From contig CAXXUA010000013.1 in the NCBI GenBank assembly GCA_963663765.2, forward strand, positions 32,001 through 96,000: 64,000 bases of DNA, read 5' to 3'. A program made the translations under genes and the position numbers. Positions 1-41,373 of this stretch are shown here, in pieces. The stretch is from Candidatus Poribacteria bacterium. Its GTDB lineage: Bacteria > Poribacteria > WGA-4E > WGA-3G. The notes beneath the pieces were generated by a model that saw only the letters and a program-made list of their open reading frames with translations, did no database searches and was not told where the DNA came from. Position 1 is the first letter of the stretch, and every line of letters begins with the position of its first letter.

Positions 1-785
1 TTTTAAAAAGTTGTTCGGAAATATATTTAGAAACAACAAGTATTACAGAACTCTTCAAGTACATTAAAGCCGCTAACTTACATGCAGATGCGTTTCGAGT
101 TTCAGTTGTAAAAAAACCTCGTAGCCTTAAAATTGACTCCATGGATTTGGCGCACAAGATTGGTAGTATGATAGCTGGCAAACCGAATTTATCCGAACCG
201 CAAACGGTATTCTTAACCGTGATTACTACCGAAAAAATCTGGTTTGGCAGACTTCTTTCTGAAGCAGACGGTAAGTGGGTTGAATATAACCAAAGACCCC
301 ATGTAACTTCCAGTTCACTACCCGCAAGGTTAGCGCTGGCACTTGTGAATATAATCTCATCACCAGGTGAACACCTGCTTGACCCGTGCTGTGGAACTGG
401 AACGATTGTCATGTCAGCAGCTCAATACGGTATGAAAGCAAGCGGATCTGATATCAACCCGCGAATGGTAGGCGCTACAACAAAAAACCTTTCACATTTT
501 GGACTTCATGCCGATGTTCAATTAAAAGATGCACGTGAGATCCAAAATACATTTGACGCAATCGCTACAGACCTACCTTACGGTCTCAGCCTCGTAAAGG
601 ATTCAGACGCAACTTACGACATACTTGCTAATCTACGTACATGCGCTCCTAAAGCCGCTTTCATTGATATTCGTGACATAAGCCAACAACTTACGGACAT
701 AGGGTATAGAGTTGAAACAATTATTCCTGTCCCAAAATTACAACTTATTCGTCGCGTCTTTATAACCTCTAACGCTGATCAATAA
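1..785 (+). CDS. SAM-dependent RNA methyltransferase (THUMP/Trm11/Trm14-like), 5' truncated by the window edge
   Basis: Frame is open from position 3. Motif I LLDPCCGTGT and motif IV TDLPYG are present. Confidence 0.75.
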   Translation, partial: LKSCSEIYLETTSITELFKYIKAANLHADAFRVSVVKKPRSLKIDSMDLAHKIGSMIAGKPNLSEPQTVFLTVITTEKIWFGRLLSEADGKWVEYNQRPHVTSSSLPARLALALVNIISSPGEHLLDPCCGTGTIVMSAAQYGMKASGSDINPRMVGATTKNLSHFGLHADVQLKDAREIQNTFDAIATDLPYGLSLVKDSDATYDILANLRTCAPKAAFIDIRDISQQLTDIGYRVETIIPVPKLQLIRRVFITSNADQ

Positions 786-11776: not shown

Positions 11777-12047
11777 TATAGTGTTCTCCTTTTAAAGACA
11801 AGACAGATAAAGACAGGACAGACGCATTTTCCCTTTAAGGTCCTCTTCCCCACTTTCGGGGGGTTAAAAGGGGACTTTTTAGGAAAATGTGACTGTTCCA
11901 GCTCACGTCGCGTCAGTCCTGAAAGATATGAATATAGTGTAAAAGGTTATTTCTTGTCTTATGTCTTTACAGTTTTCACTGGAGCAAATTTGAGACTCAG
12001 CCTCCACCTATGCCGTGTCATTGTAGACACAGGGATAGACTGGCGGA

Positions 12048-23399: not shown

Positions 23400-24548
23400 A
23401 TGATTGTTAATCGACTTATCGTAAAAAACTGGAGAAATTTTCAGCAAATAAATGTTCCTTTGAGAGAACGAATATTTATCGTAGGTCCAAATGCCTCGGG
23501 TAAATCTAATTTGCTGGACATTTTCCGCTTTCTTCGTGATATTGCTAAAGCGGAAGGTGGAGGAATCCAGAAAGCAGTTAAAGATCGCGGTGGTGTTTCC
23601 AAAATTCGGTGTTTAGCAGCCCAACGTGACCCCAAAGTTGAGATTGAGATCCACATTGCTGATACACCAGATGCACCCGCAACATGGCGATATAGCATTG
23701 GATTCCATCAAGAGAAATATCAAGAAGGTCCCGCTTATCTCACCTATGAACGAGTTTGGCGAGAAGGAGAATTACTGCTAAATAGACCGGATTCGGAGGA
23801 TAACGAAGACCCAGACCGTCTTATCCAAACAGCCCTTGAACAGAACGCTGCCAATGCAAAGTTCCGGGAAATCGGAAAATTCCTTAGAAATGTTAAATAT
23901 CTTCATTTAGTACCGCAATTTATCCGCTATTCGGATGTAATTCAAGGCAAGATAATTGAAGATGATCCATTTGGACAAGGATTTCTTCAAAGAGTAGCAA
24001 GTACACATCACAGCACCCGTCGATCACGTCTTAAAAGGATTGAACGGACGTTGAAACTTGCTATACCGCAGTTTGAGAAATTGGAATTTGTTCGGGATAA
24101 AAACACAGGACACCCACATTTACAAGCACGATATGAACATTGGCATTCAAGTGAAACAACACATCAAGAAGATCAATTCTCTGATGGAATGCTTCGACTT
24201 ATTGGATTGATGTGGTCCCTTCTTGAAAACGACTCTATAATTCTGTTAGAAGAACCTGAACTTTCATTAAACCTTGGAATTGTTGCACAACTTGCCCCTT
24301 TGATATCTAATATGCAAAAGGATAGACGATGTCAAGTGTTAACCAGCACACAAAGTGACACACTCCTTATAGAACCTGGTATTGATGGTTCAGAAGTGAT
24401 TCTGCTTATGACTACAAAAAACGGAACTGAAGTTAAACCTTCCTCTGATTCTGATACGGTGTGTACACTTCTAAAGAATGGCGTTACAGTAGGTGAAATT
24501 GTCATGACAAGATGTCCAAAAGAATCGAGTCTATTAGAATGGCATTAA
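23400..24548 (+). CDS. ABC/AAA_21-type ATPase
   Basis: Walker A GPNASGKSN, signature FSDGMLR, Walker B LLEEPE. Confidence 0.85.
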   Translation: MIVNRLIVKNWRNFQQINVPLRERIFIVGPNASGKSNLLDIFRFLRDIAKAEGGGIQKAVKDRGGVSKIRCLAAQRDPKVEIEIHIADTPDAPATWRYSIGFHQEKYQEGPAYLTYERVWREGELLLNRPDSEDNEDPDRLIQTALEQNAANAKFREIGKFLRNVKYLHLVPQFIRYSDVIQGKIIEDDPFGQGFLQRVASTHHSTRRSRLKRIERTLKLAIPQFEKLEFVRDKNTGHPHLQARYEHWHSSETTHQEDQFSDGMLRLIGLMWSLLENDSIILLEEPELSLNLGIVAQLAPLISNMQKDRRCQVLTSTQSDTLLIEPGIDGSEVILLMTTKNGTEVKPSSDSDTVCTLLKNGVTVGEIVMTRCPKESSLLEWH

Positions 24549-25168
24549 ACAACGTAATTCTTGCAATTGAGGATAGACTCAGTGATGTTGTTGCTACTAA
24601 AATTCTTAATCATTTCGGTGGTGAAATTATACAAAAAGCTGGATATAAGGGTAATTCTTACCTTCAACAGAAAGCACAAAGTTTCAATAAAGGAGCTCGC
24701 AAAGAATGTAGTATCTTTATGTTGACAGATTTAGACTCTCCTCAAGATTGCCCTCCAGGACTCATTCAATCTTGGATTAGAGGTCCACTTAATCCATATT
24801 TCTTGATTCGTGTGGCAGTCATGGAGGTTGAATCTTGGGTGATGGCAGATAGAGTAGGATTTGCTAATTTCCTATCTATACCTATACATCGAATTCCATC
24901 ACCGACAGTCGACATCCTTAACCCTAAAGAATTTTTGGTATCGTTAGCACGAAAGAGTCAAAAGAAAAGAGTACGTCAAGCATTAGTTCCAGGACCAGGT
25001 ACAAACCTTTCTGTTGGACCACAATATAACGAGTATTTAAGTGATTTTATACAAGACCATTGGAATTTAGAACGCGCTGCAACCGTATCTCCATCTCTAA
25101 AACGCACTATAGACCGACTCACACAAGAAATGGTGACAAATGAACAAGAAATTCCAACGCAACATTGA
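24539..25168 (+). CDS. DUF4276-like (TOPRIM-related) partner of the ATPase
   Basis: ILAIED..S, MLTDLD, RVAVMEVESWVMAD, SPSL; overlaps the ATPase stop. Likely start is the ATG at about 24539. Confidence 0.7.
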   Translation: MALNNVILAIEDRLSDVVATKILNHFGGEIIQKAGYKGNSYLQQKAQSFNKGARKECSIFMLTDLDSPQDCPPGLIQSWIRGPLNPYFLIRVAVMEVESWVMADRVGFANFLSIPIHRIPSPTVDILNPKEFLVSLARKSQKKRVRQALVPGPGTNLSVGPQYNEYLSDFIQDHWNLERAATVSPSLKRTIDRLTQEMVTNEQEIPTQH

Positions 25169-28159: not shown

Positions 28160-29367
28160 CCTTGACTTTCGCCACCAATACGTTCCTTACTGATCTTCTC
28201 ATAATAACCGCTCTTTCGATATGCAGCCAACGGATGTGGATCACGACCCATCTCCAAACGAACCTCTTCCAATAGCGGATTCACATCGGTTTCATAAGCA
28301 CGTTGGATGATGCTTTCTGCTTCTACCAAGTCTTCTGCTTCCTGTGCTTCTGATAACGCTTCCCGATCAACTAACAGTGCCTTCGCATAAGCTTTCTGTA
28401 GATTACATACAGACTGTATACTCGCTTCAACCTTCGGTTTCAAATTATGACTCTGGTCTATCATATAGGCTATGTCTGTTTCCGTTTCTGGATCAAGCTC
28501 AGCTGCAACAAGTTCTGTATAAATTAGGAAGAGTTCCTGTGGATTGATAGAACCTACCGTCAAGTCATCATCTGCATACTTGCGGCAGTTGAAATGGAAA
28601 CCACCAAGTTTGCTTTCATCAATCAAGTATGCAACGATAAACTCAATATTTGTGCCTTGCGGATGGTGTCCAAGGTCAACAAGTACCTGTGCTTTTGCTC
28701 CAAGTTTCGTTGCCATTAAATAAGCAGTACCCCAATCAGCCAAATCCGTGTGGTAAAATGCTGGTTCAAAGAACTTATACTCAATCAACATGCGTGAGTC
28801 TGCTGGAAGTACATCGTAGACCTCACTCAATGCTTCTGTCATCCACTGTTTGCGTTGCCGAAAGTTGGCTTGACCGGGAAAGTTTGTCCCATCAGCAAAC
28901 CACAAACTTAGCAAATCTGAACCCGTTTTCTTCATTATATCAACACATTCCAACATGTGATCTATAGCAAGTCTCCGCACCTCTGCCCTTGGATTGCACA
29001 CACTACCAAGTTTATAGACCTGATCCTGAAATACGTTAGGATTAATCGCACCAATTCCGATGCCAACATCTGCAGCATACTGCTTCAACGCACCCCAATC
29101 GTCTGTCTTGTCCCAAGGAATGTGTAGCGCTACAGTCGGCGCAACACCAGTAAAACGGTGCACAGTCGCAGCATCCTCTAACCGTTCCGCTGCATTTCTC
29201 GCCGCACCTGCTTGTTCAAAAACACCAAAACGTGTACCAGAATTACCATAACCCCAAGATGGTGTCTCAATATGTTGTTGCTTCAGGTGAGTCTTTACTT
29301 CATCCGCCTGAATTCCCTGTTTTTCTAAGGTTTCTGCTAACAAATTATACGCAGGATTATTACTCAT
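28150..29367 (-). CDS. rhaI: L-rhamnose isomerase (RhaI/actinobacterial type)
   Basis: [47 protein letters not shown]. Confidence 0.88.
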
Positions 29368-29747
29368 GTATCTCCTCTCAATCGCTCATGAATTTCTGTG
29401 AATTATAACATAGTAACGATCTATTAGTAAAGTGTTTTTCAGATAATGTCTGTGTAAAGTTCTTAAGCATGGTGTTGTCTGATTCACAGTTGTAACGGAT
29501 TACGCGGATAGAATCTTTGACTAAAGTGATATACTACTCAATAAACATCATATAAGCAATACGATCTATGGTAGATGAATTATCCGCGTTCTCTGTGTAA
29601 TCCGCGTAATCCGCGATTCTGTCTGTGAAAAACGTACACATCCCACTTGATTTTTAATTTGCGTTATTTCTGTTAACTGTGATATAATATATTTATGATA
29701 ATATTTTGAATTCTATTGCTACGAAATTCTTCTATTTGAAATATAAT

Positions 29748-29776
29748 TTGACTTGATTACGTATTTAAGTTAGAAT
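29748..29776 (+). promoter_or_regulatory. Sigma70-type promoter upstream of the cohesin gene
   Basis: TTGACT-N17-TAGAAT. Confidence 0.6.
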
Positions 29777-29959
29777 AAATTTATCCCATAAGTGTATAAA
29801 CACGTTTGAGCGATTCACCTGTGTCGTATTTTCGGTGATACTTAGGCGCGCATGATTCCCGATGGTTTGCGGTGATTTCTTCTCTCAAACGACTATTAAA
29901 ACCTGTACCGAAAGGTAGAGAAAACAATATATTGTAAATGAATTAGTAAGGAGTGTTTT

Positions 29960-32716
29960 ATGAAAAATCAGCTTTTTAAGAGGAAAGTTTTATGTTCCTT
30001 TATGGCTGTTGTAATGTTATTTGGTTTGACAGCATTGAGTTACGGTGCAGCTAACGTTTCAGTTGATCCTGCTACGGTTGAATCTCCTGCTGTCGGCGAA
30101 CAGTTAACAGTGAATATCAATATTGCAGATGGTGAAGGTGTCGGGGGTTTCGAAGCTCAAATTAATTATGACAATACTGCTCTAAAATATGTTTCCGCAG
30201 CAAAGGGAGACTATATTCCCGGCGACCCAGCCGCTGGAACTTTCTTTACACTAATACGACCAGGTGATTCACATGTTGTCATTGCAGGAACATCCATTCA
30301 AGTAGGAACTGGAGAAGGGGATGGCACACTTGCTACAGTGACATTTGAAGTCGTTGAGGTAAAAGCATCTGCTATTACACTTTCGAAAGTTTCACTCGCT
30401 GATGCTGCAGGTCAACAATTAGATGTCACAACTGCAGATGGTGCTGTGACTGTTCCTGCACCTGACCCTGTTTATGGTGTTATGTTAGAAGGTGTAGGTG
30501 AGTTGAAAACAGAAACATCTGATCCAGGTGAAGGTGTTACCTATACGCTCAAAGTCACAAACGCTGGCGATACTGATGATGTGATAGATTTAGCTGCATC
30601 AAATGCTGATGCTACTTTAAGTGAAACCTCTCTATCACTGGAATCAGGTGCTTCAGCAGAAGTAACATTAACTATTCCCGCTACAGCACTTGCTACACCA
30701 GGGGATTATGAAATCAAAGTTACCGCGACTTCACAAGGTGATAGCACAAAAACTGCTGAGGTATCAACAACTACAACTATATCAGAACCCGTTGAACCCG
30801 AACCTGACCCTGTTTATGGAGTCATGTTAGCAGGGGTAGGTGATTTGACAGCAGAAGTATCTGATACAAGTGAAGGTGTTACCTATACGATCAATGTCAC
30901 AAACGCTGGCGATACAGATGATGTGATAGATTTAGCTGCATCAAATGCTGATGCTACTTTAAGTGAGACCTCTGTATCACTGGAATCAGGTGCTTTAGTA
31001 GAAGTAACATTAACTATTCCCGCTACAGCACTTGCTACACCAGGAGATCATGAAGTCAAAGTTACTGCGACTTCACAAGGCGATAATACAAAAACTGCTG
31101 AAGTCACTACAACTACAACTGTGAGCACTGAACCCGTTGCCCCCGAACCACAAGTGTTCAGTATTACTCTTACCAACCTAACTACCGGCGATCCAGGTGT
31201 TGGTGGACAAATCTTCTCACCGCCAATCTTCGCAGCACATCCTGCTGGTGTCAAAATCTATGAAGTCGGTAAAAAAGCTGAACCTTACATGGTTGCACTC
31301 GCTGAAGGTGGAGATGTCACAGGACTTGCCGCACTTGCAACCGTTGCCGGCGCAAACAGTGTTATCGCAGACGGAATGGTACATCCAGGTGCATCTGTTA
31401 CAGTCATGGTTTCTGCTGATGCAATAAATTCAGCTCTCTCTCTCACAACAATGTTAGTATCTACAAACGATGCATTTATCGGTGTTGCAGACTTACCACT
31501 CTACGATGAAGCTGGTATGCCAATCACAACAACACTTGATCTAAGATCTTATGATGCAGGTAGTGAACAGAATACGGAACGTGGAACAGATATTCCAGGA
31601 CCCGTTGGTCTGTCTGCAGAAGAAGACCCTGAAGGTACAAATGCTCGTGTTCCCACTGAAGGTGGCGTTATTACAAATCATCCCGGTATCATGGGTGTCG
31701 GTGATGTCGCTGACTCCTTTGCTTGGACAGAACCAACAGCAATGCTGACCATCGCTCCTTATGTGCCAGAACCACCAGTAATACCACCACCACCCCTACC
31801 CACTTATGATGTTACCCTTGAACCCGGTTTGAACATGATCTCTGTACCGTTGATGCCAGCAGAACCCTATTCAGCAAAAACACTTTCTGAAATGGTCGGT
31901 TCTACTGTTGTTATTAGACTCAACAGTGAAACACAAAGGTTTGAAGGTTATGTCGCAAACGAAGAAAGCCACGGTTTCTATATTGAAGGTGGAAAAGGAT
32001 ATATCGTTAATACTCCCGTTGGTGGAACGGTAACTTTCAGTGGTACTGCTTGGTCTACTGAACCCGCAGATGATGATGGGGAAGCTGCAGCACCAAGTAT
32101 CACAACAAATGGTGCATGGGCGTTTATCGTCGCAAGCGACATACAAAAAGCAGTAGACGGTTCTACATACACCATGGTCGCTAAAAACCTCCGTACTGGG
32201 GTTGTTACATCACAGCAAGTTGTTAACGAAAATGGGCATGTTAATGCTGTCTGGGCTGACCTAACTCGAAAGAGTGTTGTTCAAGCCGGTGATAAAGTTG
32301 AAATCGCACTTGTTGATGAAAACGATACAATTGTCTCTGGACCATTCCAGCGCACCGTACAAACCTCAGATATTCACAACGCATATCTAAGCATAAACAT
32401 GCGTGTTGGCGATGTCCGTCCGAAAGAGACTATGCTCGGACAAAACTTCCCAAATCCGTTCAACCCTGAAACTTGGATTCCTTATCAGTTACATCAAGAT
32501 GCTAACGTTAAGATTTCCATTTTTGATATATCAGGTAATACAGTCAGAACGCTGAACCTCGGTCAAAAGACTACTGGTTCATACATGACCAATTCAACTG
32601 CAGCCTATTGGGATGGCAAAAATGAAACGGGTGAACACGTTGCAAGCGGTGTATATTTCTATGCACTACAAGCATCTAATTTCACTGCAACCCGTCGCAT
32701 GGTCATTCTCAAGTAG
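29960..32716 (+). CDS. Secreted cohesin + 2 NEW3/Ig-like repeats + Spondin_N + FlgD-Ig/T9SS-like CTD protein
   Basis: Cohesin: VGEQLTVNINI..INYDNTALKYV..GDGTLATVTFEV. Spondin_N: GQIFSPPIFAAH..ALAEGGD..MLVSTNDAF..YDAGSEQN. CTD: LGQNFPNPFNPETWIPY..WDGKN..GVYFY. Confidence 0.8.
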   Translation: MKNQLFKRKVLCSFMAVVMLFGLTALSYGAANVSVDPATVESPAVGEQLTVNINIADGEGVGGFEAQINYDNTALKYVSAAKGDYIPGDPAAGTFFTLIRPGDSHVVIAGTSIQVGTGEGDGTLATVTFEVVEVKASAITLSKVSLADAAGQQLDVTTADGAVTVPAPDPVYGVMLEGVGELKTETSDPGEGVTYTLKVTNAGDTDDVIDLAASNADATLSETSLSLESGASAEVTLTIPATALATPGDYEIKVTATSQGDSTKTAEVSTTTTISEPVEPEPDPVYGVMLAGVGDLTAEVSDTSEGVTYTINVTNAGDTDDVIDLAASNADATLSETSVSLESGALVEVTLTIPATALATPGDHEVKVTATSQGDNTKTAEVTTTTTVSTEPVAPEPQVFSITLTNLTTGDPGVGGQIFSPPIFAAHPAGVKIYEVGKKAEPYMVALAEGGDVTGLAALATVAGANSVIADGMVHPGASVTVMVSADAINSALSLTTMLVSTNDAFIGVADLPLYDEAGMPITTTLDLRSYDAGSEQNTERGTDIPGPVGLSAEEDPEGTNARVPTEGGVITNHPGIMGVGDVADSFAWTEPTAMLTIAPYVPEPPVIPPPPLPTYDVTLEPGLNMISVPLMPAEPYSAKTLSEMVGSTVVIRLNSETQRFEGYVANEESHGFYIEGGKGYIVNTPVGGTVTFSGTAWSTEPADDDGEAAAPSITTNGAWAFIVASDIQKAVDGSTYTMVAKNLRTGVVTSQQVVNENGHVNAVWADLTRKSVVQAGDKVEIALVDENDTIVSGPFQRTVQTSDIHNAYLSINMRVGDVRPKETMLGQNFPNPFNPETWIPYQLHQDANVKISIFDISGNTVRTLNLGQKTTGSYMTNSTAAYWDGKNETGEHVASGVYFYALQASNFTATRRMVILK

Positions 32717-32740
32717 AATACATTACCATTTTACGCAATA

Positions 32741-32812
32741 AAAAGACACCCCGACTGCCGGTTTTTCGACCGCGAATCAACAATGATTAGCGTCGGCGGT
32801 GGGGTGTCTTTT
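32741..32812. terminator. Intergenic stem-loop with U-tracts on both strands
   Basis: 12-bp stem aaaagacacccc / ggggtgtctttt. Confidence 0.65.
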
Positions 32813-32837
32813 CGCGTATACGGTAAGGAGGTAAAAT

Positions 32838-35800
32838 TTGATTAATCTCAGTAGAATATCCACTCTTTCAATTATACTACTACTCATCTTCGTTGTCAGC
32901 AACAATGTTTTCGCCTATTCTTTCAATCCACCCGATGAAAAGACCGGAGCACCAAATCAAAGTGACTGTACCGACTGTCACCTTGGAAATGTCCTAAACA
33001 GCGCTGGCGGTTCATTCGTATTGACAGTACCTACAGTCTATGTTCCCGGTGAAGAGTATAGTATTGTCGTAGATTTAATGCGGACAGGCCAAAGTCGTTG
33101 GGGTTTTCAGATGACCGCACTAAATGGTAATAATGCAAGGGCAGGTACCTTTACTACCGTTGATGCAAATACACAATTGTCAGTAGCGAACAGCAAGCAA
33201 TATATTGAGCAGACAACAGCTGGAACTGCTCAAGGAACACGAAACAGAAACCAATGGTCGTTCAAATGGACTGCACCGTCTACTGATGTCGGACCAATTA
33301 CGTTCTATTCCACAGGAAATGCTGCAAATAACAATAGTGCTTCTTCGGGAGATTATATCTATACGACATCCGCCACTGCAAATGCTGCTGCTTACGGTGT
33401 TGCAATAACCGGTGTAGGGGAAATAACCAAAAGCATATCCGATGCCAGTTCGGGAGTGAATTACACATTACGGGTGACAAACAACGGAAATATAACTGAT
33501 ACTTTCAATTTGGAAACTTCAGGTGATGTCACGGGAACACTAAGCCAAACCTCGGTCCAACTCAACGCAGGAGCTTCCGCTAACATAACTTTATCACTGC
33601 CCGGATCCGCATTAGCAACTGCAGATAATTACGGAGTAAAGGTGAAAGCAACTTCACGGGGGGATAACTCAAAGACCTCTGAAATTACAACGACGACTAC
33701 AATCCTTCCTGTCTATGATGTTGCATTAACAGGTGTCGGTAGTTTACAGAAAACGACCAATGCAGAAACCGGCGCAAGTTATACTCTCCGAATTACCAAT
33801 AATGGAAATACTGAAGACACAATACGATTAACGACTTCAGGGGATGTCAACGCAACAATCAGTTCCAGTTCTGTGACTCTCAAGCAAAATACATCCTCTA
33901 ACGTCACCCTAAGAGTTTCTGGTGATGCACTTGCAAAAGCAGGTGATTACAAAGTAAAGGTAACTGCAACATCTCAAGGTGATGATACAATAACAGATGA
34001 AATCACAACAACTACAACCATTTCTAAAGTTTATGGTTTCACATTTGAGGGTGTAGGTGAGTTAACAACCGAAACATCGGATGCAAGTGAAGGTGTAAGT
34101 TTTACACTTAAAATCACGAATACTGGGAACACAGATGATGTTATTACTTTAGCAAAAACAGGCACAAAAGCCACCTTGAGCCAAAATGAAGTATCAATCG
34201 CCTATGGTGAATCAACACAAGTGACATTGACTATTTCTGCTGATGATTTAGCAAAAGCAGGTGATTACGAAGTCAAGCTAACTGCAACTTCTAAAGGTGA
34301 CAATACAATCACTCATGAAGTCACAACTAGTACTAATATTCTACCTGTTTACAGTGTTAAGTTAGATTCAAAAGGACCGTCCGCAAACTCAACGCAGGAC
34401 AGTGTCGCAGGTGTCACCTACAACCTTACTGTTACAAACACTGGTAACACAGAGGATACGATTATTCTCGGGTCATCAGCTGAGATCAGTATAGGCGGAG
34501 CAGTACTCGGTGCGTTCAAAAGAACAGAAGAACAAGCAATACCTACCACACAGTTGGAGATTACTCTCGCAGCAGGAACATCCACAGATGTGTTGTTCAT
34601 TGCTTCAGGTGACCTGCTAACAAGAACAGGGGAGTATCCAATCACTGTTACTGCAACTTCAAAAGGGGATAACACAAAATCCGCTGAAGTCACTACGACT
34701 ACAACTATCCTACCAGTTTACAGCGTCACGTTGATATCAAAGAGTCCAAATACAGGTTCAACGCAGGACAGTGTCGCAGGTGTCACCTATAACCTTACTG
34801 TTACAAACACAGGAAACACTGAGGATACGATTATTCTCGGGTCATCAGCTGAGATCGGTATAGGTGGAGCAGTACTCGGTGTTTTCAAAAGAACAGAAGA
34901 ACAAGCAATACCTACCACACAGTTGGAGATTACTCTCGCAGCAGGAACATCCACAGATGTGTTGTTCATTGCTTCAGGTGACCTGCTAACAAGAACAGGG
35001 GAGTATCCAATCACTGTTACTGCAACTTCAAAAGGGGATAACACAAAATCCGCTGAAGTCACTACGACTACAACTATCCTACCAGTTTACAGCGTCACGT
35101 TGATATCAAAGAGTCCAAATACAGGTTCAACGCAGGACAGTGTCGCAGGTGTCACCTATAACCTTACTGTTACAAACACAGGAAACACTGAGGATACGAT
35201 TATTCTCGGGTCATCAGCTGAGATCGGTATAGGCGGAGCAGTACTCGGTGCGTTCAAAAGAACAGAAGAACAAGAAATACCTACCGCACAGTTGGAGATT
35301 ACTCTCGCAGCAGGAACATCCACTGATGTGTTGTTCATTGCTTCAGGTGACCTGCTAACAAGATCAGGGGAGTATCCAATCACTGTTACTGCAACTTCAA
35401 AAGGGGATAACACAAAATCCGCTGAAGTCACAACGACTACTACTATCCTACCTGTCTACAACGTCACGTTGAAAACTAATGGTCCAAATATAGGTTCAAC
35501 ACAGGACAGTGTATCAGGTGTCACCTATAACCTTACTGTTACAAATACTGGTAACACAGAGGATACGATTATTCTCGGGTCATCAGCTGAGATCGGTATA
35601 GGCGGAGCAGTACTCGGTGCTTTCAAAAGAACAGAAGAACAAGAAATACCTACCGCACAGTTGGAGATAACACTCGCAGCAGGAGCATCCGTTGATGTGT
35701 TGTTCATAGCTACAGGTGACCTGCTAACAAGATCAGGGGAGTATCCAATCACAGTTACCGCATCTTCAAAAGGGGATAACACAAAATCCACTGAAGTCAC

Positions 35801-38800
35801 AACGACTACAACTATCCTACCAGTTTACAGCGTCACGTTGATATCAAAGAGTCCAACTACAGGTTCAACGCAGGACAGTGTCACAGGTGTCACCTATAAC
35901 CTTACTGTTACAAATACTGGTAACACAGAGGATACGATTATTCTCGGGTCATCAGCTGAGATCGGTATAGGCGGAGCAGTACTCGGTGCTTTCAAAAGAA
36001 CAGAAGAACAAGAAATACCTACCGCACAGTTGGAGATAACACTCGCAGCAGGAGCATCCACAGATGTGTTGTTCATAGCTTCAGGTGACCTGCTAACAAG
36101 ATCAGGTAAGTATCCAATCACAGTTACTGCAACTTCAAAAGGGGATAACACAAAATCCGCTGAAGTCACAACGACTACTACTATCCTACCAGTTTACAGC
36201 GTCACGTTGATATCAAAGAGTCCAACTACAGGTTCAACGAAAGACAGTGTGACAGGTGTCACCTATAACCTTACTGTTACAAACACAGGAAACACTGAGG
36301 ATACGATTATTCTCGGGTCATCAGCTGAGATCGGTATAGGGGGAGCAGTACTCGGTGCTTTCAAAAGAACAGAAGAACAAGAAATACCTACCGCACAGTT
36401 GGAGATAACTCTCGCAGCAGGCGCATCCACTGATGTGTTGTTCATTGCTTCAGGTGACCTGCTAACAAGATCAGGGGAGTATCCAATCACAGTTACCGCG
36501 ACTTCAAAAGGGGATACAACAAAATCCGATGAAGTCACAACGACTACTATTATCCTACCTGTCTATGGTTTTACGTTGGAAGGGGTAGGTGAGTTATCAA
36601 CCGAAACAGCGGATGCAACTGAAGATGTCAGTTATACGTTCAAAATCACTAACAATGGAAACACAGAAGATGTATTTACTTTAGCAACATCAGGTACAAA
36701 AGCGATCTTGAGCCAAAATGAAATATCAATCGCCTATGGTGAATCCGCAGAAGTGACATTGACTATTTCTGCTGATGATTTAGCAAGAGCAGGTAATTTC
36801 GAAGTCAAGATAACTGCAACATCTAAAAGTGACAATACTATCACTCATGAAGTCACAACAACTACAACCGTCCTACCTGTTTACGGTGTCACGTTGAAAT
36901 CTGAAACTACAACTACAGCTTCAACGCAAGACAGTGTGGCAGGTGTCACCTATAACCTTACTGTTACAAACACAGGAAACACAGAAGATACGATTATTCT
37001 CGGGTCATCAGCTGAGGTCGGTATAGGGGGAGCAGTACTCGGTGCTTTCAAAAGAACAGAAGAACAAGAAATACCTACCGCACAGTTGGAGATAACTCTC
37101 GCAGCAGGCGCATCCACTGATGTGTTGTTTATTGCTTCAGGTGACCTGCTAACAAGAATAGGAGAGTATCCAATCACAGTTACCGCGACTTCAAAAGGGG
37201 ATAACACAAAATCCAATGAAGTCACAACGACTACTACTATCCTACCAGTCTACAGCGTCACGTTGATATCAAAGAGTCCAACTACAGGTTCAACGCAAGA
37301 CAGTGTGACAGGTGTCACCTATAACCTTACTGTTACAAACACAGGAAACACTGAGGATACGATTATTCTCGGGTCATCAGCTGAGGTCGGTATAGGGGGG
37401 GCAGTACTCGGTGCTTTCAAAAGAACAGAAGAACAAGAAATACCTACTGCGCAGTTGGAGATAACACTCGCAGCAGGCGCATCTACTGATGTGTTGTTTA
37501 TTGCTTCAGGTGACCTGCTAACAAGTCTTGGTGAGTATCCAATCACTGTTACTGCAACCTCAAAAGGAGATAGCACAAAGACTGCTGAAGTCCAGACAAC
37601 GACTATAATTGTTGCCGTCCCTCCTGTCTACGGTGTGGAATTAACAGGAAAAGGTAAACTCACAAGTTCTACAGAAGATGCAGTGGAAGGTATTTCATAT
37701 ACACTCACAGTCACAAACACTGGTAACACGCATGATACGATTGTTCTCGGGTCATCAGCTGAAACAGGAAGTAAAGGGAGTATCCTTGGTACTTTCAAAC
37801 AAACTGACGATCAAGATACTACTTCAAGCCAGTTGGAGATTGAACTCGCTGAAGATGAATCCAAGGACGTGTTATTTACTATTGCTGGCGATTCATATAC
37901 AGAATCAGGTGAGTATGAAGTCAACGTTTCCGCAATATCAAAAACCGATAGCACAAAAACCGCAGAAGTCAGTACGACAACGACTATTCTCCCTGTCTTC
38001 AATGTCACATTAGTTGGTAAAGGAGATATTACAACTGAAACCACTGAAGTAAGCAATTGGATAAGATATGTATTTACAGTAAAAAATACTGGTAACACTT
38101 CTGGTACGGTGGATCTGGTTGCTCAAGCTGAAATCCCAGTTGAAATAAGAGTACATACTGTGACAAATTTAGAAGATGGTAAGGAATTAATTCTTGTGAT
38201 TGATTATATCGCACCAAGTGTTGATACAGCAAGTAATCAAACTACTACATTTCTTAGACCCGGTGGTACAGCAGAAATTTCAATTTATGTTTTTGCTGAA
38301 AGTCTTCAAAAAGCAGGTGAGTATGATGTTAAAGTCATTGCAACACATCAAGGAGATAAGACAAAATCTGCTGAAGTCACAACCAAAACGACTATTACTC
38401 CCACCTACGGTGTAAAGTTACAGGGTAAAGACGAACTGATAGGTGAAACAATGGATCCCTTAAAAGGTGTAAGTTATGTGTTGACCGTTACAAACGAAGG
38501 TAATGCTGAAGATACTTTCTTACTCGGTTCGTCAGCAGAAGTTGGTATTGAGGGAACCGTTATCGGATTATTCACTGCATCAGATGATCAAGAAATACCC
38601 ACAAGCCAGATCGAGGTAATGCTTGCACCCGGTGCCTCTAAGGAAGTTACATTCACTGCTAAAGGTGACTTTTTCACAAAACCAGGTGAAAATGAAATCG
38701 TTGTAACAGGCACTTCAAAATCTGACGATACGAAAACTGCTGAAATAACGACTACAACAACGATTACTCCTGTCCCTTGGGATCTCAACGCTGATGGTAC

Positions 38801-38966
38801 AGTAAACATCTTGGATCTGGTACTCGTTTCCAATCAGTTTGGTGAATCCGGTGATGGTCTTTCTGGTGATGTGAACATGGATGGCACTGTGAATATCCTT
38901 GACCTTGTTCAGGTAGCGTCATATTTCGGCAAATCACATGTTGAAATTGTTCAAGAGAATCAGTAA
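32838..38966 (+). CDS. Giant secreted protein: Reeler-like (choice-of-anchor V, CxxCH) head, about 15 NEW3/Ig-like repeats, C-terminal dockerin
   Basis: TGAPNQSDCTDCH, WGFQMTA, WSFKWTAP..GPITFY..GNAAN; YNLTVTNTGN.EDT repeats; WDLNADGTVNILDLV / DVNMDGTVNILDLV. Confidence 0.85.
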   Translation: MINLSRISTLSIILLLIFVVSNNVFAYSFNPPDEKTGAPNQSDCTDCHLGNVLNSAGGSFVLTVPTVYVPGEEYSIVVDLMRTGQSRWGFQMTALNGNNARAGTFTTVDANTQLSVANSKQYIEQTTAGTAQGTRNRNQWSFKWTAPSTDVGPITFYSTGNAANNNSASSGDYIYTTSATANAAAYGVAITGVGEITKSISDASSGVNYTLRVTNNGNITDTFNLETSGDVTGTLSQTSVQLNAGASANITLSLPGSALATADNYGVKVKATSRGDNSKTSEITTTTTILPVYDVALTGVGSLQKTTNAETGASYTLRITNNGNTEDTIRLTTSGDVNATISSSSVTLKQNTSSNVTLRVSGDALAKAGDYKVKVTATSQGDDTITDEITTTTTISKVYGFTFEGVGELTTETSDASEGVSFTLKITNTGNTDDVITLAKTGTKATLSQNEVSIAYGESTQVTLTISADDLAKAGDYEVKLTATSKGDNTITHEVTTSTNILPVYSVKLDSKGPSANSTQDSVAGVTYNLTVTNTGNTEDTIILGSSAEISIGGAVLGAFKRTEEQAIPTTQLEITLAAGTSTDVLFIASGDLLTRTGEYPITVTATSKGDNTKSAEVTTTTTILPVYSVTLISKSPNTGSTQDSVAGVTYNLTVTNTGNTEDTIILGSSAEIGIGGAVLGVFKRTEEQAIPTTQLEITLAAGTSTDVLFIASGDLLTRTGEYPITVTATSKGDNTKSAEVTTTTTILPVYSVTLISKSPNTGSTQDSVAGVTYNLTVTNTGNTEDTIILGSSAEIGIGGAVLGAFKRTEEQEIPTAQLEITLAAGTSTDVLFIASGDLLTRSGEYPITVTATSKGDNTKSAEVTTTTTILPVYNVTLKTNGPNIGSTQDSVSGVTYNLTVTNTGNTEDTIILGSSAEIGIGGAVLGAFKRTEEQEIPTAQLEITLAAGASVDVLFIATGDLLTRSGEYPITVTASSKGDNTKSTEVTTTTTILPVYSVTLISKSPTTGSTQDSVTGVTYNLTVTNTGNTEDTIILGSSAEIGIGGAVLGAFKRTEEQEIPTAQLEITLAAGASTDVLFIASGDLLTRSGKYPITVTATSKGDNTKSAEVTTTTTILPVYSVTLISKSPTTGSTKDSVTGVTYNLTVTNTGNTEDTIILGSSAEIGIGGAVLGAFKRTEEQEIPTAQLEITLAAGASTDVLFIASGDLLTRSGEYPITVTATSKGDTTKSDEVTTTTIILPVYGFTLEGVGELSTETADATEDVSYTFKITNNGNTEDVFTLATSGTKAILSQNEISIAYGESAEVTLTISADDLARAGNFEVKITATSKSDNTITHEVTTTTTVLPVYGVTLKSETTTTASTQDSVAGVTYNLTVTNTGNTEDTIILGSSAEVGIGGAVLGAFKRTEEQEIPTAQLEITLAAGASTDVLFIASGDLLTRIGEYPITVTATSKGDNTKSNEVTTTTTILPVYSVTLISKSPTTGSTQDSVTGVTYNLTVTNTGNTEDTIILGSSAEVGIGGAVLGAFKRTEEQEIPTAQLEITLAAGASTDVLFIASGDLLTSLGEYPITVTATSKGDSTKTAEVQTTTIIVAVPPVYGVELTGKGKLTSSTEDAVEGISYTLTVTNTGNTHDTIVLGSSAETGSKGSILGTFKQTDDQDTTSSQLEIELAEDESKDVLFTIAGDSYTESGEYEVNVSAISKTDSTKTAEVSTTTTILPVFNVTLVGKGDITTETTEVSNWIRYVFTVKNTGNTSGTVDLVAQAEIPVEIRVHTVTNLEDGKELILVIDYIAPSVDTASNQTTTFLRPGGTAEISIYVFAESLQKAGEYDVKVIATHQGDKTKSAEVTTKTTITPTYGVKLQGKDELIGETMDPLKGVSYVLTVTNEGNAEDTFLLGSSAEVGIEGTVIGLFTASDDQEIPTSQIEVMLAPGASKEVTFTAKGDFFTKPGENEIVVTGTSKSDDTKTAEITTTTTITPVPWDLNADGTVNILDLVLVSNQFGESGDGLSGDVNMDGTVNILDLVQVASYFGKSHVEIVQENQ
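34340..37610 (+). repeat. Intragenic 369-bp (123-aa) tandem repeats: 6 copies, a different Ig unit, then 2 copies
   Basis: The antisense ORF track repeats with a 369-bp period (34418 to 36263; 36950, 37319). Confidence 0.95.
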
Positions 38967-39005: not shown

Positions 39006-40103
39006 GTGCCTATCCTTATGGAGAACAATATATATATGGCATCAAAATATCGTGTTGGGATTATTGGCTGTGGTGGCATCGCTAATGCACATGCACGCGG
39101 GTATCAAGGTGTTGAAGAAACTGATATTGTCGCACTCGCTGACCCCGTTCAAGCAGCACTATATAAATTCGCTGACAACTACGATGTATCAAAGGATAAC
39201 TGTTATTTAGATGCGCGCGAGATGTTAGATAACGAAAACTTGGACATCGTCAGTGTTACCACATGGCATAAACTGCATGCACCGATGACTATTGCAGCCT
39301 GCGCAAGAGCACCAAAGGCTGTTCTCTGCGAAAAACCTATGGGGGTTAGCCTCGGAGAATGTAATGAGATGTCAATCGCTGCCAACCGAAATAATGTCAA
39401 ACTTGTTATAGGACATCAACGCCGCTTTAATCCCGCATGGACTGATGCACGCAACCTCATCGCTGACGGCGCTATCGGGGAACCTCGGCAAATTGTTTGC
39501 AACGGTGGACAGGGATTATTAAATGACTGCTCACATCTATTCGATATGATGCGCTATCTACTAAATGACCCCGATCCGCAATGGGTTATCGGAAACGTTG
39601 AACGCAAAACTGAAAGGTTTGAACGAGATATACAAATTGAAGACCGTAGCGCAGGAATTGTCGGTTTTTCAAACGGATGCATCGGCATGCTGTTACAGGA
39701 AATCGGTAGACCGAATTATCAAGGGGGTATCGTCTACGGTACTGATGGAATTGCGGATGTAACAGAACGCCGCGTACGAATATTAAACAACAAAACCGCA
39801 GATTGGGAAGAACGTCCATCTGAAGGAATCGACCAACATGTCGCTCAAGCAAGGGAACTGGTTGATTGGCTTGAAGGTGGTCCAGAACACCGAGGTGAAG
39901 CAAAACACGGACGCGCAGCTGTTGAAATTATCATGGCTATCTATGAATCAGCACGAATGCACGAAGTCGTACAATTACCACTTCGTACACATGCGAACCC
40001 ACTGGACTTGATGATTGAAAGCGGTGAATTACCTGTTGTACGACCCGGTAGATACGACATCCGAGCATTCTTGTTACGCGGGGAATCCATGCAACCGGAA
40101 TAA
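39006..40103 (+). CDS. Gfo/Idh/MocA oxidoreductase
   Basis: VGIIGCGGIA, VLCEKP, GHQRRF. Likely start is MASKY. Confidence 0.9.
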   Translation: MPILMENNIYMASKYRVGIIGCGGIANAHARGYQGVEETDIVALADPVQAALYKFADNYDVSKDNCYLDAREMLDNENLDIVSVTTWHKLHAPMTIAACARAPKAVLCEKPMGVSLGECNEMSIAANRNNVKLVIGHQRRFNPAWTDARNLIADGAIGEPRQIVCNGGQGLLNDCSHLFDMMRYLLNDPDPQWVIGNVERKTERFERDIQIEDRSAGIVGFSNGCIGMLLQEIGRPNYQGGIVYGTDGIADVTERRVRILNNKTADWEERPSEGIDQHVAQARELVDWLEGGPEHRGEAKHGRAAVEIIMAIYESARMHEVVQLPLRTHANPLDLMIESGELPVVRPGRYDIRAFLLRGESMQPE

Positions 40104-40131
40104 CATACATTCAAATTGAGACTATTATAGC

Positions 40132-41373
40132 ATGCAGATAACGCAAGGACTTAGTGTTGGCATCTCAGCACTCAGACGCAATAAGTTACGTTCCGTCCTT
40201 ACAACACTCGGTATCATCATAGGTATAGCAGCCGTAGTGGCTGTCGTCTCGGTCGGCGGCGGTGCAGAACACCTCGTCCTAATTGAACTGGAACGCACTG
40301 GTGGTGCAGGTATGATCGTTTGCTTCCGACGGTCACATCTCCAAAGAACTGATGGTTCGTATATTGAAAACAAGCATCCTGAATTCATTGAATACGAAGA
40401 CCTACCATTTATCCTTGCAAAATGTCCTTCACTTAAAACAGCAAGTGCTCAGTCTGGAATGGAAAGACGCGTCTCACACAGACATGTCAATCAGTCCCTT
40501 CAGGTACACGGGGTTACCCCTTCATTTCAGGTAGTCAATAACTGGCACATAGATACTGGAAGGTTTTTCACCGAAAGTGACATGGAACTCAGAGACCCTA
40601 TCTGTATTATCGGTTCAAAAGTAAAGGAAGACTTCTTTGACTGGACAAATCCCATCGGACAAGAAATAAAAATTGCTAATGAACGGTTCACCGTCGTTGG
40701 TGTCATGGAAGAAAAAGGCAATCAGATGGCAACAGAAGGATGGGATAATCGGGTCATAATACCCATTACCACTATGCAAATTCGCTTTATGGGAAAACGG
40801 AAAGGATGGATTGCCATTTTTGCTCAAGCAGTCAGTTATGAAAAAGTAGAGCAAGCAGTCGCTGAAATAAAGGTAGCATTCAGACAACAGCACGGTGATG
40901 AAAAATACTTCGATTTTTTCACCGCCAAACAGGTCATACAACAGGTAGGCAATGTTAGTCAGATCATACAGGTACTCCTCGGAGCAGTTGCAAGTATAGC
41001 ACTATTCGTCGGTGGTATCGGTATAATGAATATCATGTTAGTCTCTGTAACTGAACGTACTCGCGAAATCGGTTTACGCAAAGCGATCGGTGCAAGACGC
41101 ATTGACATTTTATTGCAGTTCCTGATTGAAGCGATTGTCCTAAGTATTTGTGGCGGATTAATAGGTATTCTTATTGGTAGTTCTCTGGCTACAGGATCGG
41201 GTTGGGTTATATCAAAATTCTTGATTAAAGATGCAAATTGGCCCGCGGTTGTTTCTGTTCAAGCTGCAGTCATAGCATTTTGTGTCTCTGCTTTCATCGG
41301 TGTATTCTTTGGAATCTATCCCGCAAACAAAGCCGCCGGACTTACACCAACTGAAGCATTACGACATGAATAA
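40132..41373 (+). CDS. MacB/FtsX-family ABC permease
   Basis: LRSVLTTLGIIIG, GGIGIMNIMLVSVTERTREIGLRKAIGA. Confidence 0.92.
   Translation: MQITQGLSVGISALRRNKLRSVLTTLGIIIGIAAVVAVVSVGGGAEHLVLIELERTGGAGMIVCFRRSHLQRTDGSYIENKHPEFIEYEDLPFILAKCPSLKTASAQSGMERRVSHRHVNQSLQVHGVTPSFQVVNNWHIDTGRFFTESDMELRDPICIIGSKVKEDFFDWTNPIGQEIKIANERFTVVGVMEEKGNQMATEGWDNRVIIPITTMQIRFMGKRKGWIAIFAQAVSYEKVEQAVAEIKVAFRQQHGDEKYFDFFTAKQVIQQVGNVSQIIQVLLGAVASIALFVGGIGIMNIMLVSVTERTREIGLRKAIGARRIDILLQFLIEAIVLSICGGLIGILIGSSLATGSGWVISKFLIKDANWPAVVSVQAAVIAFCVSAFIGVFFGIYPANKAAGLTPTEALRHE

Follow-up and report, generated by a model that had tools for sequence, protein, structure and literature searches.

A putative stalk-mounted, cytochrome f-like monohaem c protein beside its candidate cohesin anchor in Poribacteria

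In animal F-spondin, a Reeler domain is followed within one chain by an FS (spondin) domain and then by TSRs, and the animal Reeler is described as a non-haem domain (PMC4429474). A Reeler-fold cytochrome itself was already predicted in 2015 for archaeal proteins. That is, the CxxCH proteins Igni_0759 and Igni_1052 of Ignicoccus hospitalis were modelled on the reelin-N domain of F-spondin (3COO) and proposed, as a prediction only, to be cytochromes c (Kletzin et al. 2015, PMC4429474), with Cys77 or His111 suggested as the sixth ligand (PMC4429474). Cytochrome f is named 0 times in that paper's text and in the part of its supplement that was covered (PMC4429474), and reviews describe it as structurally unrelated to c1 (PMC5600118, PMC7908018). 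Cellulosomes combine a multi-cohesin scaffoldin with catalytic clients.

Here, we study a pair of genes from a 64,000-nucleotide stretch of Candidatus Poribacteria DNA (the window; Table 1). In contrast to F-spondin, Reeler and spondin domains are on separate genes and no TSR match is found; in contrast to cellulosomes, there is a single cohesin, and Pfam and NCBIfam searches find no catalytic domain in either gene and no sorting tail on gene 2. The first-pass annotation had described two same-strand ORFs 121 nt apart, which we confirm, and its domain calls hold as well: all four profile types that were checked (Cohesin, Spond_N, Reeler/choice-of-anchor V, Dockerin_1) score above cut-off. For gene 1, these are Pfam Cohesin (aa 35-165, 51 bits, cut-off 24.1) and the Spondin_N domain (Pfam Spond_N, 30 bits, cut-off 24; NCBIfam NF038123, aa 399-596, 124.9 bits, cut-off 40), joined by the secretion-type C-terminal domain (Por_Secre_tail TIGR04183, 36.1 bits, cut-off 23). 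The Reeler-like head of gene 2 matches NF041895 (choice-of-anchor V, in the following V; aa 17-179, 109.9 bits, cut-off 42) and its C-terminus Dockerin_1 (aa 1982-2030, 33.2 bits, cut-off 22.9). In line with the annotation, genome-trained profiles give 2 Ig repeats for gene 1 and 15 for gene 2; the signal peptides were assigned by visual inspection and conservation. The annotation overlooked the CxxCH motif of gene 2, the mid region of gene 1 (~208 aa) and a 72-nt intergenic hairpin.

Table 1. Features of the gene pair, in positions of the window
Feature	Position	Strand	Remarks
Gene 1	29960..32716	+	918 aa; ORF confirmed; signal peptide, cohesin, 2 Ig, spondin, mid region, T9SS-type tail
Cohesin of gene 1	30050..30457	+	aa 31-166; PF00963 51 bits
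Two Ig repeats of gene-2 type in gene 1	30464..31135	+	genome-trained profiles
Bacterial spondin (FS, C2-like) domain of gene 1	31148..31765	+	NF038123 124.9 bits; both calcium-site motifs, without Cys
Mid region of gene 1	31796..32419	+	two unnamed predicted beta-domains preceding the tail; model confidence low
T9SS type A-like C-terminal sorting domain of gene 1	32426..32713	+	TIGR04183 over cut-off
Intergenic stem-loop	32741..32812	+	72 nt; terminator- or processing-like; conserved
Gene 2	32838..38966	+	2042 aa, TTG start; signal peptide, V/Reeler head, 15 Ig, dockerin
Choice-of-anchor V / Reeler head of gene 2	32916..33392	+	NF041895, PF02014, structure model; probable cytochrome f-like monohaem c domain
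CxxCH motif of gene 2	32967..32981	+	Cys44, Cys47, His48 (mature 18, 21, 22)
Ig stalk of gene 2	33390..38774	+	15 tandem Ig-like repeats
C-terminal dockerin of gene 2	38781..38939	+	PF00404; both calcium loops

The cohesin of gene 1 (64% mean identity, 42 orthologues) matches the Acetivibrio ScaB and Clostridium perfringens NagJ cohesins by profile. Its Ig repeats are not conserved (4/54 complete gene-1 copies) and the spondin is missing in 3/54, where cohesin, mid region and tail are retained and a V gene adjoins. The spondin domains carry both calcium-site motifs ([ST]ND[AG]F in 53/54, DAG[ST]E in 54/54), also when aligned to 3D34; the motifs reported for FS domains are PSPDW/DAGTD (PMC3117680). 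None of the 54 contains a Cys, i.e., there are no FS disulfides, and mindin's LEV triplet, which binds integrin, occurs in one. The spondin is presumably an optional calcium-binding accessory. A model from spondin to tail has a mean pLDDT of 59.9, with mindin (3D34) and F-spondin (3Q13) as first matches. The mid region, found in all gene-1 copies and in 5 ORFs of the genome, has no Pfam match over cut-off and no meaningful NCBIfam match. The T9SS-type tail is found on 61 ORFs of the genome. As to the translocon, the genome has 16 PorV-family matches (7 over cut-off) and no SprA_N match, but the positive control for SprA_N was equally silent; for earlier genomes, no Por structural genes are reported (PMC3909097).

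Next, we evaluated the head of gene 2 (159 aa, model pLDDT 94.3). Pfam Reeler (PF02014) is silent on the whole of gene 2 and reaches 30.5 bits on the excised head (cut-off 21). The sole significant PDB matches of a 93-sequence head profile are to the human F-spondin Reeler (2ZOU/2ZOT/3COO, E 4e-6 to 7e-6), and the model shows the Reeler fold (3COO, Z 12.4, rmsd 3.1, 127 aligned). Cys44 and Cys47 are the only two Cys of gene 2. The pattern C-x(2-7)-C-H is present in 174/175 complete homologues, with Cys21 and His22 invariant and a Cys-Cys spacing that varies from 2 to 7, and in 63/63 Poribacteria copies. In all 173 homologues considered for position, the domain starts <60 residues from the N-terminus; among 52 assignable copies, the first Cys is mature position 18 in 42 and mature residue 1 is Phe or Tyr in 45 (Tyr in gene 2). 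CcmF-like and CcmE genes for c-type maturation are present in this genome. PF01578 is found in 31/31 non-Poribacteria V-carrying genomes, but since this common family also occurs in 9/14 controls, the support is weak. The head probably carries haem c at CxxCH. Three further dockerin-tagged ORFs of the genome contain CxxCH, and V is fused to glucose/sorbosone dehydrogenase in 2/29 long homologues. Overall, the V family comprises 6046 clusters at 50% identity with matches in many non-symbiont lineages, and relatives bear T9SS tails, dockerins or PEP-CTERM tags. A literature search by family name returned no title on choice-of-anchor V, matching only 'spondin domain-containing protein'.

Among 48,161 structure representatives, the head is most similar to cytochrome f (Z 11.5, rmsd 2.9, 139 aligned; Z 11.1, rmsd 3.2, 141 aligned), followed by Reeler 3COO (Z 10.4, rmsd 2.8, 113 aligned). 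A second comparison yields 3 Reeler (Z 11.5-12.4) and 16 cytochrome f structures (Z 10.5-11.8 over 136-142 residues, at an identity of only 11-15%) as its best 19 matches. The cytochrome f matches align model residues 1-3..159 with chain residues 1..247-251, i.e., they start at cytochrome f residue 1 (these are aligned ranges, not residue pairs), while ranks 20-50 begin at model residue 16-34. Cohesins share the fold and score within about 1-1.5 Z units (Z 10.0-10.2), and plain Foldseek lists neither cytochrome f nor Reeler among its best 50 ranks. Cytochrome f (PetA, b6f complex) is likewise a beta-sandwich c-type haem protein, with an aromatic residue 1 after signal cleavage and CxxCH near residue 20 (Tyr1, C21-x-x-C24-H25), as in the head. 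The head is without the small domain and the C-terminal membrane helix of cytochrome f; Ig repeats follow instead. A profile alignment places CxxCH on CxxCH and Gly134-Asn135 on Gly152-Asn153, with z 6.6 (3.7 without the motif; V-versus-cohesin control 2.6). HHalign reports 38 columns at 17% probability, at background level without the motif, and 4.8% with the tool's own alignments. PF16639 (cytochrome f) has no match in the genome at E up to 10, its control being positive in Synechococcus. Sequence support for the cytochrome f link is weak. The motif position and the N-terminal placement of the domain would suit the N-terminal amine as sixth haem ligand of the head, which we regard as somewhat more likely than not.

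The stalk repeats show weak FixG_C and choice-of-anchor T matches. In relatives, the stalk has 1-24 repeats, with 1-2 in most genera and 5-24 in this genus. An Ig domain is about 4-4.5 nm long, such that the 15 repeats of gene 2 amount to ~60-70 nm. The dockerin (74% mean identity) has invariant calcium-loop Asp/Asn in 43 sequences, and a conserved extension. Profiles and alignments show both cohesin and dockerin modules to be intact, and a dockerin is present in 56/57 complete gene-2 copies.

Between the genes, the 132-nt intergenic stretch folds at -48.7 kcal/mol (z -5.7, 0/200 shuffles as stable). The hairpin is matched in 59/60 intergenic regions, is single copy in the genome, shows little covariation (2/18 pairs) and has no Rfam match. 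RNA contigs from a close strain span gene 1 and stop at 32752 inside the hairpin in 2 runs, possibly of one campaign; in a run of unrecorded kind, a contig of the same region continues past this position.

We then compared the distribution of both genes. Conservation of the pair, which the annotation had proposed to check, is borne out: the genes are adjacent in 34/34 loci from 33 genomes of the genus, and adjacency is kept across several genera. Among distinct Poribacteria V genes, 59/63 are in such pairs, and the 4 exceptions are at contig edges. Within the family, 106/111 genomes have the V domain, single-copy in nearly all. Two other families (f2/f3) have spondin in 6/17 and V in 0/17 genomes, with cohesin-spondin-tail genes without a V gene (3/3 loci); in family f4, V is found in 4/7 and spondin in 0/7 genomes, and the V protein has its own tail (3/3 loci). 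One genome (L305) has a cohesin-mid-tail gene and neither spondin nor V. No redox partner gene conserved beside the pair was found.

The reading we favour, at a probability of about 0.5, is a two-part surface display, i.e., a stalk-mounted cytochrome f-like monohaem c protein tethered by cohesin and dockerin. What we observe are the domains, their motif and conservation, the likeness in fold and the maturation genes; haem, iron ligands, docking, surface location and redox role are inferred, as follows. The gene 1 product would be exported, stay on the surface through its T9SS-type tail and present one free cohesin. The gene 2 product would undergo Sec export and signal cleavage, have haem fixed to CxxCH by the Ccm system and be clipped via its dockerin to that cohesin, with the Ig repeats as a spacer that sets the projection distance of the head. 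The head would be a monohaem c cytochrome of cytochrome f architecture with His48 and the free N-terminal amine as iron ligands, most likely exchanging electrons with surface or extracellular redox partners beyond the envelope; we give this electron-exchange role about an even chance. As a point against, one haem at the tip of a stalk that does not conduct is unable to pass electrons to the cell's own membrane.

With regard to the head, the annotation had proposed that docking joins Reeler and spondin into an F-spondin-like mimic of animal matrix for a host. This is not supported, and we consider it very unlikely. Head and spondin are true homologues of the first two F-spondin domains, they are adjacent in 50/54 complete pairs (split copy counted), and of four such rows, two RNA runs with this stretch bear the label sponge metagenome (study P2). 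On the other hand, the dockerin and the head are at opposite ends of a stalk of 1-24 Ig repeats, so docking does not set the head beside the spondin, which itself is lost in the 3/54 copies mentioned above. Spondin and V also occur apart in f2/f3 and f4, no spondin is found near V in 31 non-Poribacteria loci, and no spondin-V fusion exists among 183 plus 115 homologues (298). Furthermore, the head has a haem c motif that the animal Reeler is described as being without, LEV and Cys counts are as given above, RGD occurs in 6/63 gene-2 copies only, and both domains are common bacterial families, V with thousands of clusters in many non-symbiont lineages. Of the annotation's pair logic, domain calls, adjacency and the rationale for a cohesin-dockerin tether stand while the F-spondin rebuild does not, and partner specificity is doubtful because the genome has about 50 dockerin genes. 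A stalked adhesin without haem, with a host or polysaccharide ligand bound by the Reeler head and with C-x(n)-C-H forming a small metal site or a disulfide loop, also appears unlikely, if less so. Fibrillar adhesins usually consist of a tip domain, a variable Ig stalk and a C-terminal anchor, which is the layout of gene 2; Reeler is tied as best structural match at higher identity (21-24% vs. 11-15% for cytochrome f), Cys spacing is variable, and animal reelin_N is reported to bind heparin (PMC3117680). This is countered by the His, which comes right after the second Cys in all complete homologues at any spacing, and by a domain that is always N-terminal with a cytochrome f match from residue 1.

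With regard to docking, the tether of the two proteins is plausible given their adjacency in 34/34 loci, and the gene-2 dockerin probably docks on the gene-1 cohesin. That both modules are stand-alone calcium- or envelope-binding tags of merely co-transcribed genes is improbable: cohesin and dockerin do share one chain in 10 ORFs and dockerins are far more numerous than cohesins, but gene 2 has a sorting tail in 0/63 copies with gene 1 upstream compared to 3/3 in f4, and no complete gene-1 locus is without the cohesin, not even those that have lost spondin. A slightly less than even chance is given to gene 1 serving the cell as a shared docking site for numerous dockerin proteins that have no tail (among them WD40 propellers and cytochromes), with gene 2 as its operon client; this does not conflict with the haem reading, from which it departs only on exclusivity. 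Gene 1 is the sole ORF of the genome with cohesin and tail but without dockerin, facing 34 dockerin-only ORFs (some of them fragments), and the recognition residues of the dockerin (positions 10/11 and 17/18) are common to many others of the genome, such that exclusive pairing is not indicated and gene 1 possibly anchors dockerin proteins in general; seven ORFs with cohesin, dockerin and tail are possible alternative anchors. The V-less cohesin-spondin-tail genes of f2/f3 and the cohesin-mid-tail gene of L305 point the same way, as do, weakly, the RNA contigs of 2 runs ending in the hairpin. Conversely, the dockerins of gene 2 cluster closely (identity to this one 76-100% vs. 29-62% for other dockerins) and have a conserved extension, and the pair is preserved across several genera.

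If the head carries an N-terminally ligated haem, cytochrome f would no longer stand alone as a fold of oxygenic phototrophs, and a single small soluble protein would allow its origin and its link to animal Reeler to be tested. A probable function would be gained for a catalogued family with thousands of clusters, and a cohesin-dockerin system found in almost all genomes of the largest Poribacteria family would bear a redox protein instead of hydrolases, with gene 1 as a candidate means to hold many dockerin proteins at the surface. More tentatively, and rather doubtful at present, V/bacterial Reeler may be the relative of cytochrome f that has long been missing. It would then be a large family of monohaem cytochromes with N-terminal ligation in prokaryotes that do not photosynthesize; acquisition of the small domain and the membrane anchor would have given rise to cytochrome f, and haem loss to animal Reeler. 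Poribacteria would display the domain cellulosome-style for extracellular redox exchange, on a stalk whose length can be adjusted.

Compared to known systems, the Poribacteria proteins have Reeler and FS domains homologous to those of F-spondin and mindin with calcium-site motifs kept, while animal FS disulfides and (but for the one copy above) mindin's LEV are absent from their spondins and the haem motif is found only in their Reeler. Igni_0759 and Igni_1052, as published, share the layout of the head by eye, but are archaeal, short and without stalk. The head is a member of the NF041895/PF02014 family, and here it tops a stalk of 15 Ig repeats that ends in a dockerin alone, with a cohesin gene next to it. 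PgcA of Geobacter sulfurreducens, as described, similarly puts extracellular monohaem domains on a tether, but these are three alpha-helical haem domains with flexible low-complexity linkers and without cohesin-dockerin (PMC10570954). Closest to the gene pair in logic are the 'planctosome' (PMC6461901) and the Ca. Stygibacter scaffoldin with C-terminal sorting domain (PMC8542988), accounts of which predict, for diderm bacteria, dockerin-tagged clients and a cohesin-bearing anchor at the surface; their clients are peptidases and glycosidases, whereas here one cohesin faces a non-hydrolytic, probably haem-bearing client.

HMM searches with curated cut-offs recover both genes and all domains that the first-pass annotation had named. 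The Reeler call on gene 2 passed its cut-off only once the head, i.e., the choice-of-anchor V (NF041895) or Reeler domain (V domain), was excised; it is backed by a profile match of the head to human F-spondin Reeler structures. Mindin and F-spondin likewise match the spondin of gene 1, both in sequence and in fold, which backs that call. Ntox44, Retro_M, DUF2987 and other whole-protein Pfam matches had no single passing stretch and were discarded as repeat-summed noise, and the RGD that gene 2 carries at aa 274 was dropped since it is not conserved. The locus is genuine and conserved, while its earlier interpretation, i.e., that cohesin-dockerin docking rebuilds an F-spondin mimic from the spondin of gene 1 and the Reeler of gene 2, is partly mistaken.

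Coordinates of the gene pair and of other features discussed (G000, this genome; L-numbers, loci from other genomes)
Feature	Position	Description
Gene 1	window 29960..32716 (+)	918 aa; cohesin, two Ig repeats, spondin, 'mid' region, T9SS-type tail
Gene 2	window 32838..38966 (+)	2042 aa; V/Reeler head, 15 Ig repeats, dockerin, no tail
Oxidoreductase and permease	window 39006-41373	Gfo/Idh/MocA oxidoreductase and MacB-like permease, 39 nt past gene 2; no obvious link
Ig-repeat protein	window 57182-60328	1048 aa; HExxH-type metallopeptidase segment, same Ig repeats as the pair
ATPase gene	window 23400-25168	AAA_21-type; overlapped by a 218-aa ORF
Dockerin-only proteins	window 9563-13742 and 51631-53652	three, including two WD40 propellers
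Second spondin gene	G000:C5:978111-980408	spondin-mid-tail; N-terminal domain replacing the cohesin
CcmE gene	G000:C5:1650170-1650460	Cys-x-x-x-Tyr motif instead of His; adjoins CcmF
Dockerin-tagged CxxCH proteins	G000:C4:1123395-1128374 and C6:811-3474	two CxxCH motifs apiece
Tandem V genes	L175:4577-9221 (three), L159:4182-7483 (two), L169:7824-10685 (two)	CX2CH and CX4CH mixed; Blastocatellia and Heliobacteriaceae records
Spondin-less gene-1 copies	L126:5723-7690, L134:5653-7788	long Ala-Asp dipeptide repeats at the spondin's place

The expected adjacency of the two genes beyond this genome is borne out: a spondin gene lies immediately 5' of the V gene at 34/34 genus loci retrieved. As relatives are not independent, this and the following counts show retention and are no statistical test. 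Spondin and V matches occur in the same 33 of 36 other genus genomes, and the remaining three (300-910 contigs each) have neither. The cohesin was found at 33/34 genus loci (once on a separate overlapping ORF, a split copy), the one lacking it being truncated by the contig start. In the genome collection, the records of the 49 nearest V-domain loci all bear the title Candidatus Poribacteria. Pooling them with the genus loci gave 63 distinct V genes (excluding this genome and three loci of f4, another Poribacteria family), 59 of which directly follow a tail-bearing gene; the other 4 are at contig edges. Among the 54 complete upstream genes, 49 encode cohesin and spondin and 3 a cohesin without spondin, while one of the remaining two is a split copy and the other a mid-tail gene that follows the cohesin-spondin gene as an additional insertion. 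The dockerin ends gene 2 in 56/57 complete copies (the exception is split across two ORFs), and a sorting tail was never seen on gene 2 among the pooled copies. One genome bin (G015; contamination 6%) holds two copies of the pair (L076 and L087).

Across the phylum, the V domain was found in 106/111 genomes of this family and 4/7 of f4, and in none of the other Poribacteria families searched. Copies of gene 2 carry 1 to 24 Ig repeats; since most genera have versions of 360-530 aa, the giant form largely reflects an expansion within this genus. Besides the 1048-aa protein of the window, three further paralogues of ~1000 aa and two shorter ones carry the same Ig repeats. Homologues of the neighbouring oxidoreductase and permease are present at 28 and 27 of 34 genus loci, respectively, and at 29/33 further loci. 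Elsewhere in the window, the layout of the ATPase gene and its overlapping ORF resembles that of a defence or toxin-antitoxin pair.

The sole two Cys residues of the head make a CxxCH motif at mature positions 18-22. All of the first 38 heads aligned carry such a motif (C-x2-C-H in 29, C-x4-C-H in 9), and among 183 diverse homologues (the best of 6046 hits), C-x(2-7)-C-H is found in 174 of the 175 left after omitting 8 N-terminal fragments. The V domain is N-terminal in 173/173. Genes for haem maturation are present in this genome and, as a weak test, in 31/31 other V-carrying genomes. The Cys-type CcmE encoded here is one that we take to carry the label 'System I*'.

We then related the head to known folds, starting from its confident AlphaFold model (pLDDT 94.3). 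In an exhaustive structural search, the first two places went to cytochrome f chains and the next to the F-spondin Reeler, and all top 19 rows of a second structural comparison were Reeler or cytochrome f. The Z scores of both are tied, with cohesins (same fold class) about one unit below; cytochrome f is distinguished by its coverage, i.e., 136-142 aligned residues starting from cytochrome f residue 1. Plain Foldseek returned generic beta-sandwiches, with both Reeler and cytochrome f absent from the first 50 ranks, and an atlas search with the head matched Reeler or unnamed clusters only. The single match below E 0.001 in a single-sequence PDB search, a designed beta-trefoil repeat, was judged a chance match.

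Sequence support for the cytochrome f relation is thin: HHalign aligned the motif and the next strands only, and its global mode gave no alignment. Semi-global profile alignment reached z 6.6 (3.7 without the motif; cohesin control 2.6), where z refers to column shuffles that ignore strand periodicity. It places the conserved Gly-Asn of the head on Gly152-Asn153 of cytochrome f; Asn153, which has a role near the haem, is named as a mutated site in a PDB title. In cytochrome f, the N-terminal amine is a haem ligand, and metagenomic cytochrome f sequences show Tyr1 and CxxCH at 21-25. One paper mentions an iron-coordinating Tyr (PMC7908018), and a reference title in another speaks of 'unexpected heme ligation' (PMC5600118). 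PF16639 had no match in this genome and was absent among the 25 families listed of 85 for 93 homologues; when a fragment of cytochrome f was searched against the atlas with its own families left out, there was no usable match, and a cytochrome f motif scan over viral contigs gave 0.

An F-spondin mimic formed by docking would draw on the spondin and Reeler likenesses, but several observations argue against it. The stalk lies between the head and the dockerin and so keeps them apart, the spondin can be missing (in 3/54 complete upstream genes), and spondin and V are found separately in other families. Furthermore, no spondin lies close to 31 non-Poribacteria V loci, and none of the best 183 of 6046 and best 115 of 470 hits is a spondin-V fusion. 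When compared using FS-domain motifs from PMC3117680, the gene 1 spondin keeps the calcium motifs of mindin/F-spondin but is without the Cys and the LEV triplet. Spondin matches of the second, cohesin-less type are present in many genus genomes.

The docking component itself is plausible, but it is probably not exclusive to the pair. Pfam matches in this genome amount to 60 for Dockerin_1 and 12 for Cohesin. Counting ORFs by iterated profiles (fragments included), 34 have a dockerin only, 12 dockerin and tail, and 7 all three modules, while a cohesin occurs with a dockerin in 3, alone in 4 and with a tail in 1, which is gene 1. Gene-2 dockerins form a tight group; at the usual recognition positions (10/11 and 17/18), however, they carry residues common to many other dockerins of the genome. 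The three dockerin-only proteins of the window are possible clients of the same cohesin. Cohesin-bearing relatives of gene 1 are also found in families without V. In f4, no spondin gene was found and the V protein carries its own tail, as expected if gene 1 provides the anchor elsewhere. PorV-family matches occur at 16 places in this genome, some apparently near tail-bearing genes. Por structural genes had not been found in an earlier study of Poribacteria (PMC3909097), though these bacteria may possess a divergent route of T9SS-like type.

We propose that the gene 1 product would serve as anchor for the gene 2 product, which would hold out, by way of a spacer, what is probably a monohaem cytochrome. 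Our best guess is that the head exchanges electrons. This role is aided by the fusion of V to a dehydrogenase in 2/29 long homologues and by the other dockerin-tagged proteins of this genome that contain CxxCH. It is weakened in that there is no obvious route by which a single haem, borne on a stalk of protein, could connect to the cell's own chain.

A conserved hairpin between the two genes (32741-32812) could determine how much anchor is made relative to client; its loop exceeds the limit of the terminator scan, which therefore did not pick it up. Since its covariation is slight, we do not claim a riboswitch, and an Rfam scan of 29300-33000 gave three matches, all at chance level. RNA contigs stop at 32752, a weak hint for a role of the hairpin; the runs comprise contigs only, and the lack of gene 2 coverage in X1 and X6 is uninformative on expression, and 5% of words are present in X9/X10.

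Our literature search, which left most subscription papers outside, found neither a description of the gene pair nor a link between cytochrome f and Reeler, which may thus be in print. The head is a member of a catalogued family, and a Reeler-fold monohaem cytochrome was already predicted in 2015 for Ignicoccus proteins, with cytochrome f unmentioned in the available part of that paper (PMC4429474). The cytochrome f link of the head is testable, tempered by this prior prediction and the weak sequence support. With regard to the display of the head, earlier papers have put forward non-cellulosomal cohesin-dockerin systems in Planctomycetes and in Cloacimonadota (PMC6461901, PMC8542988).
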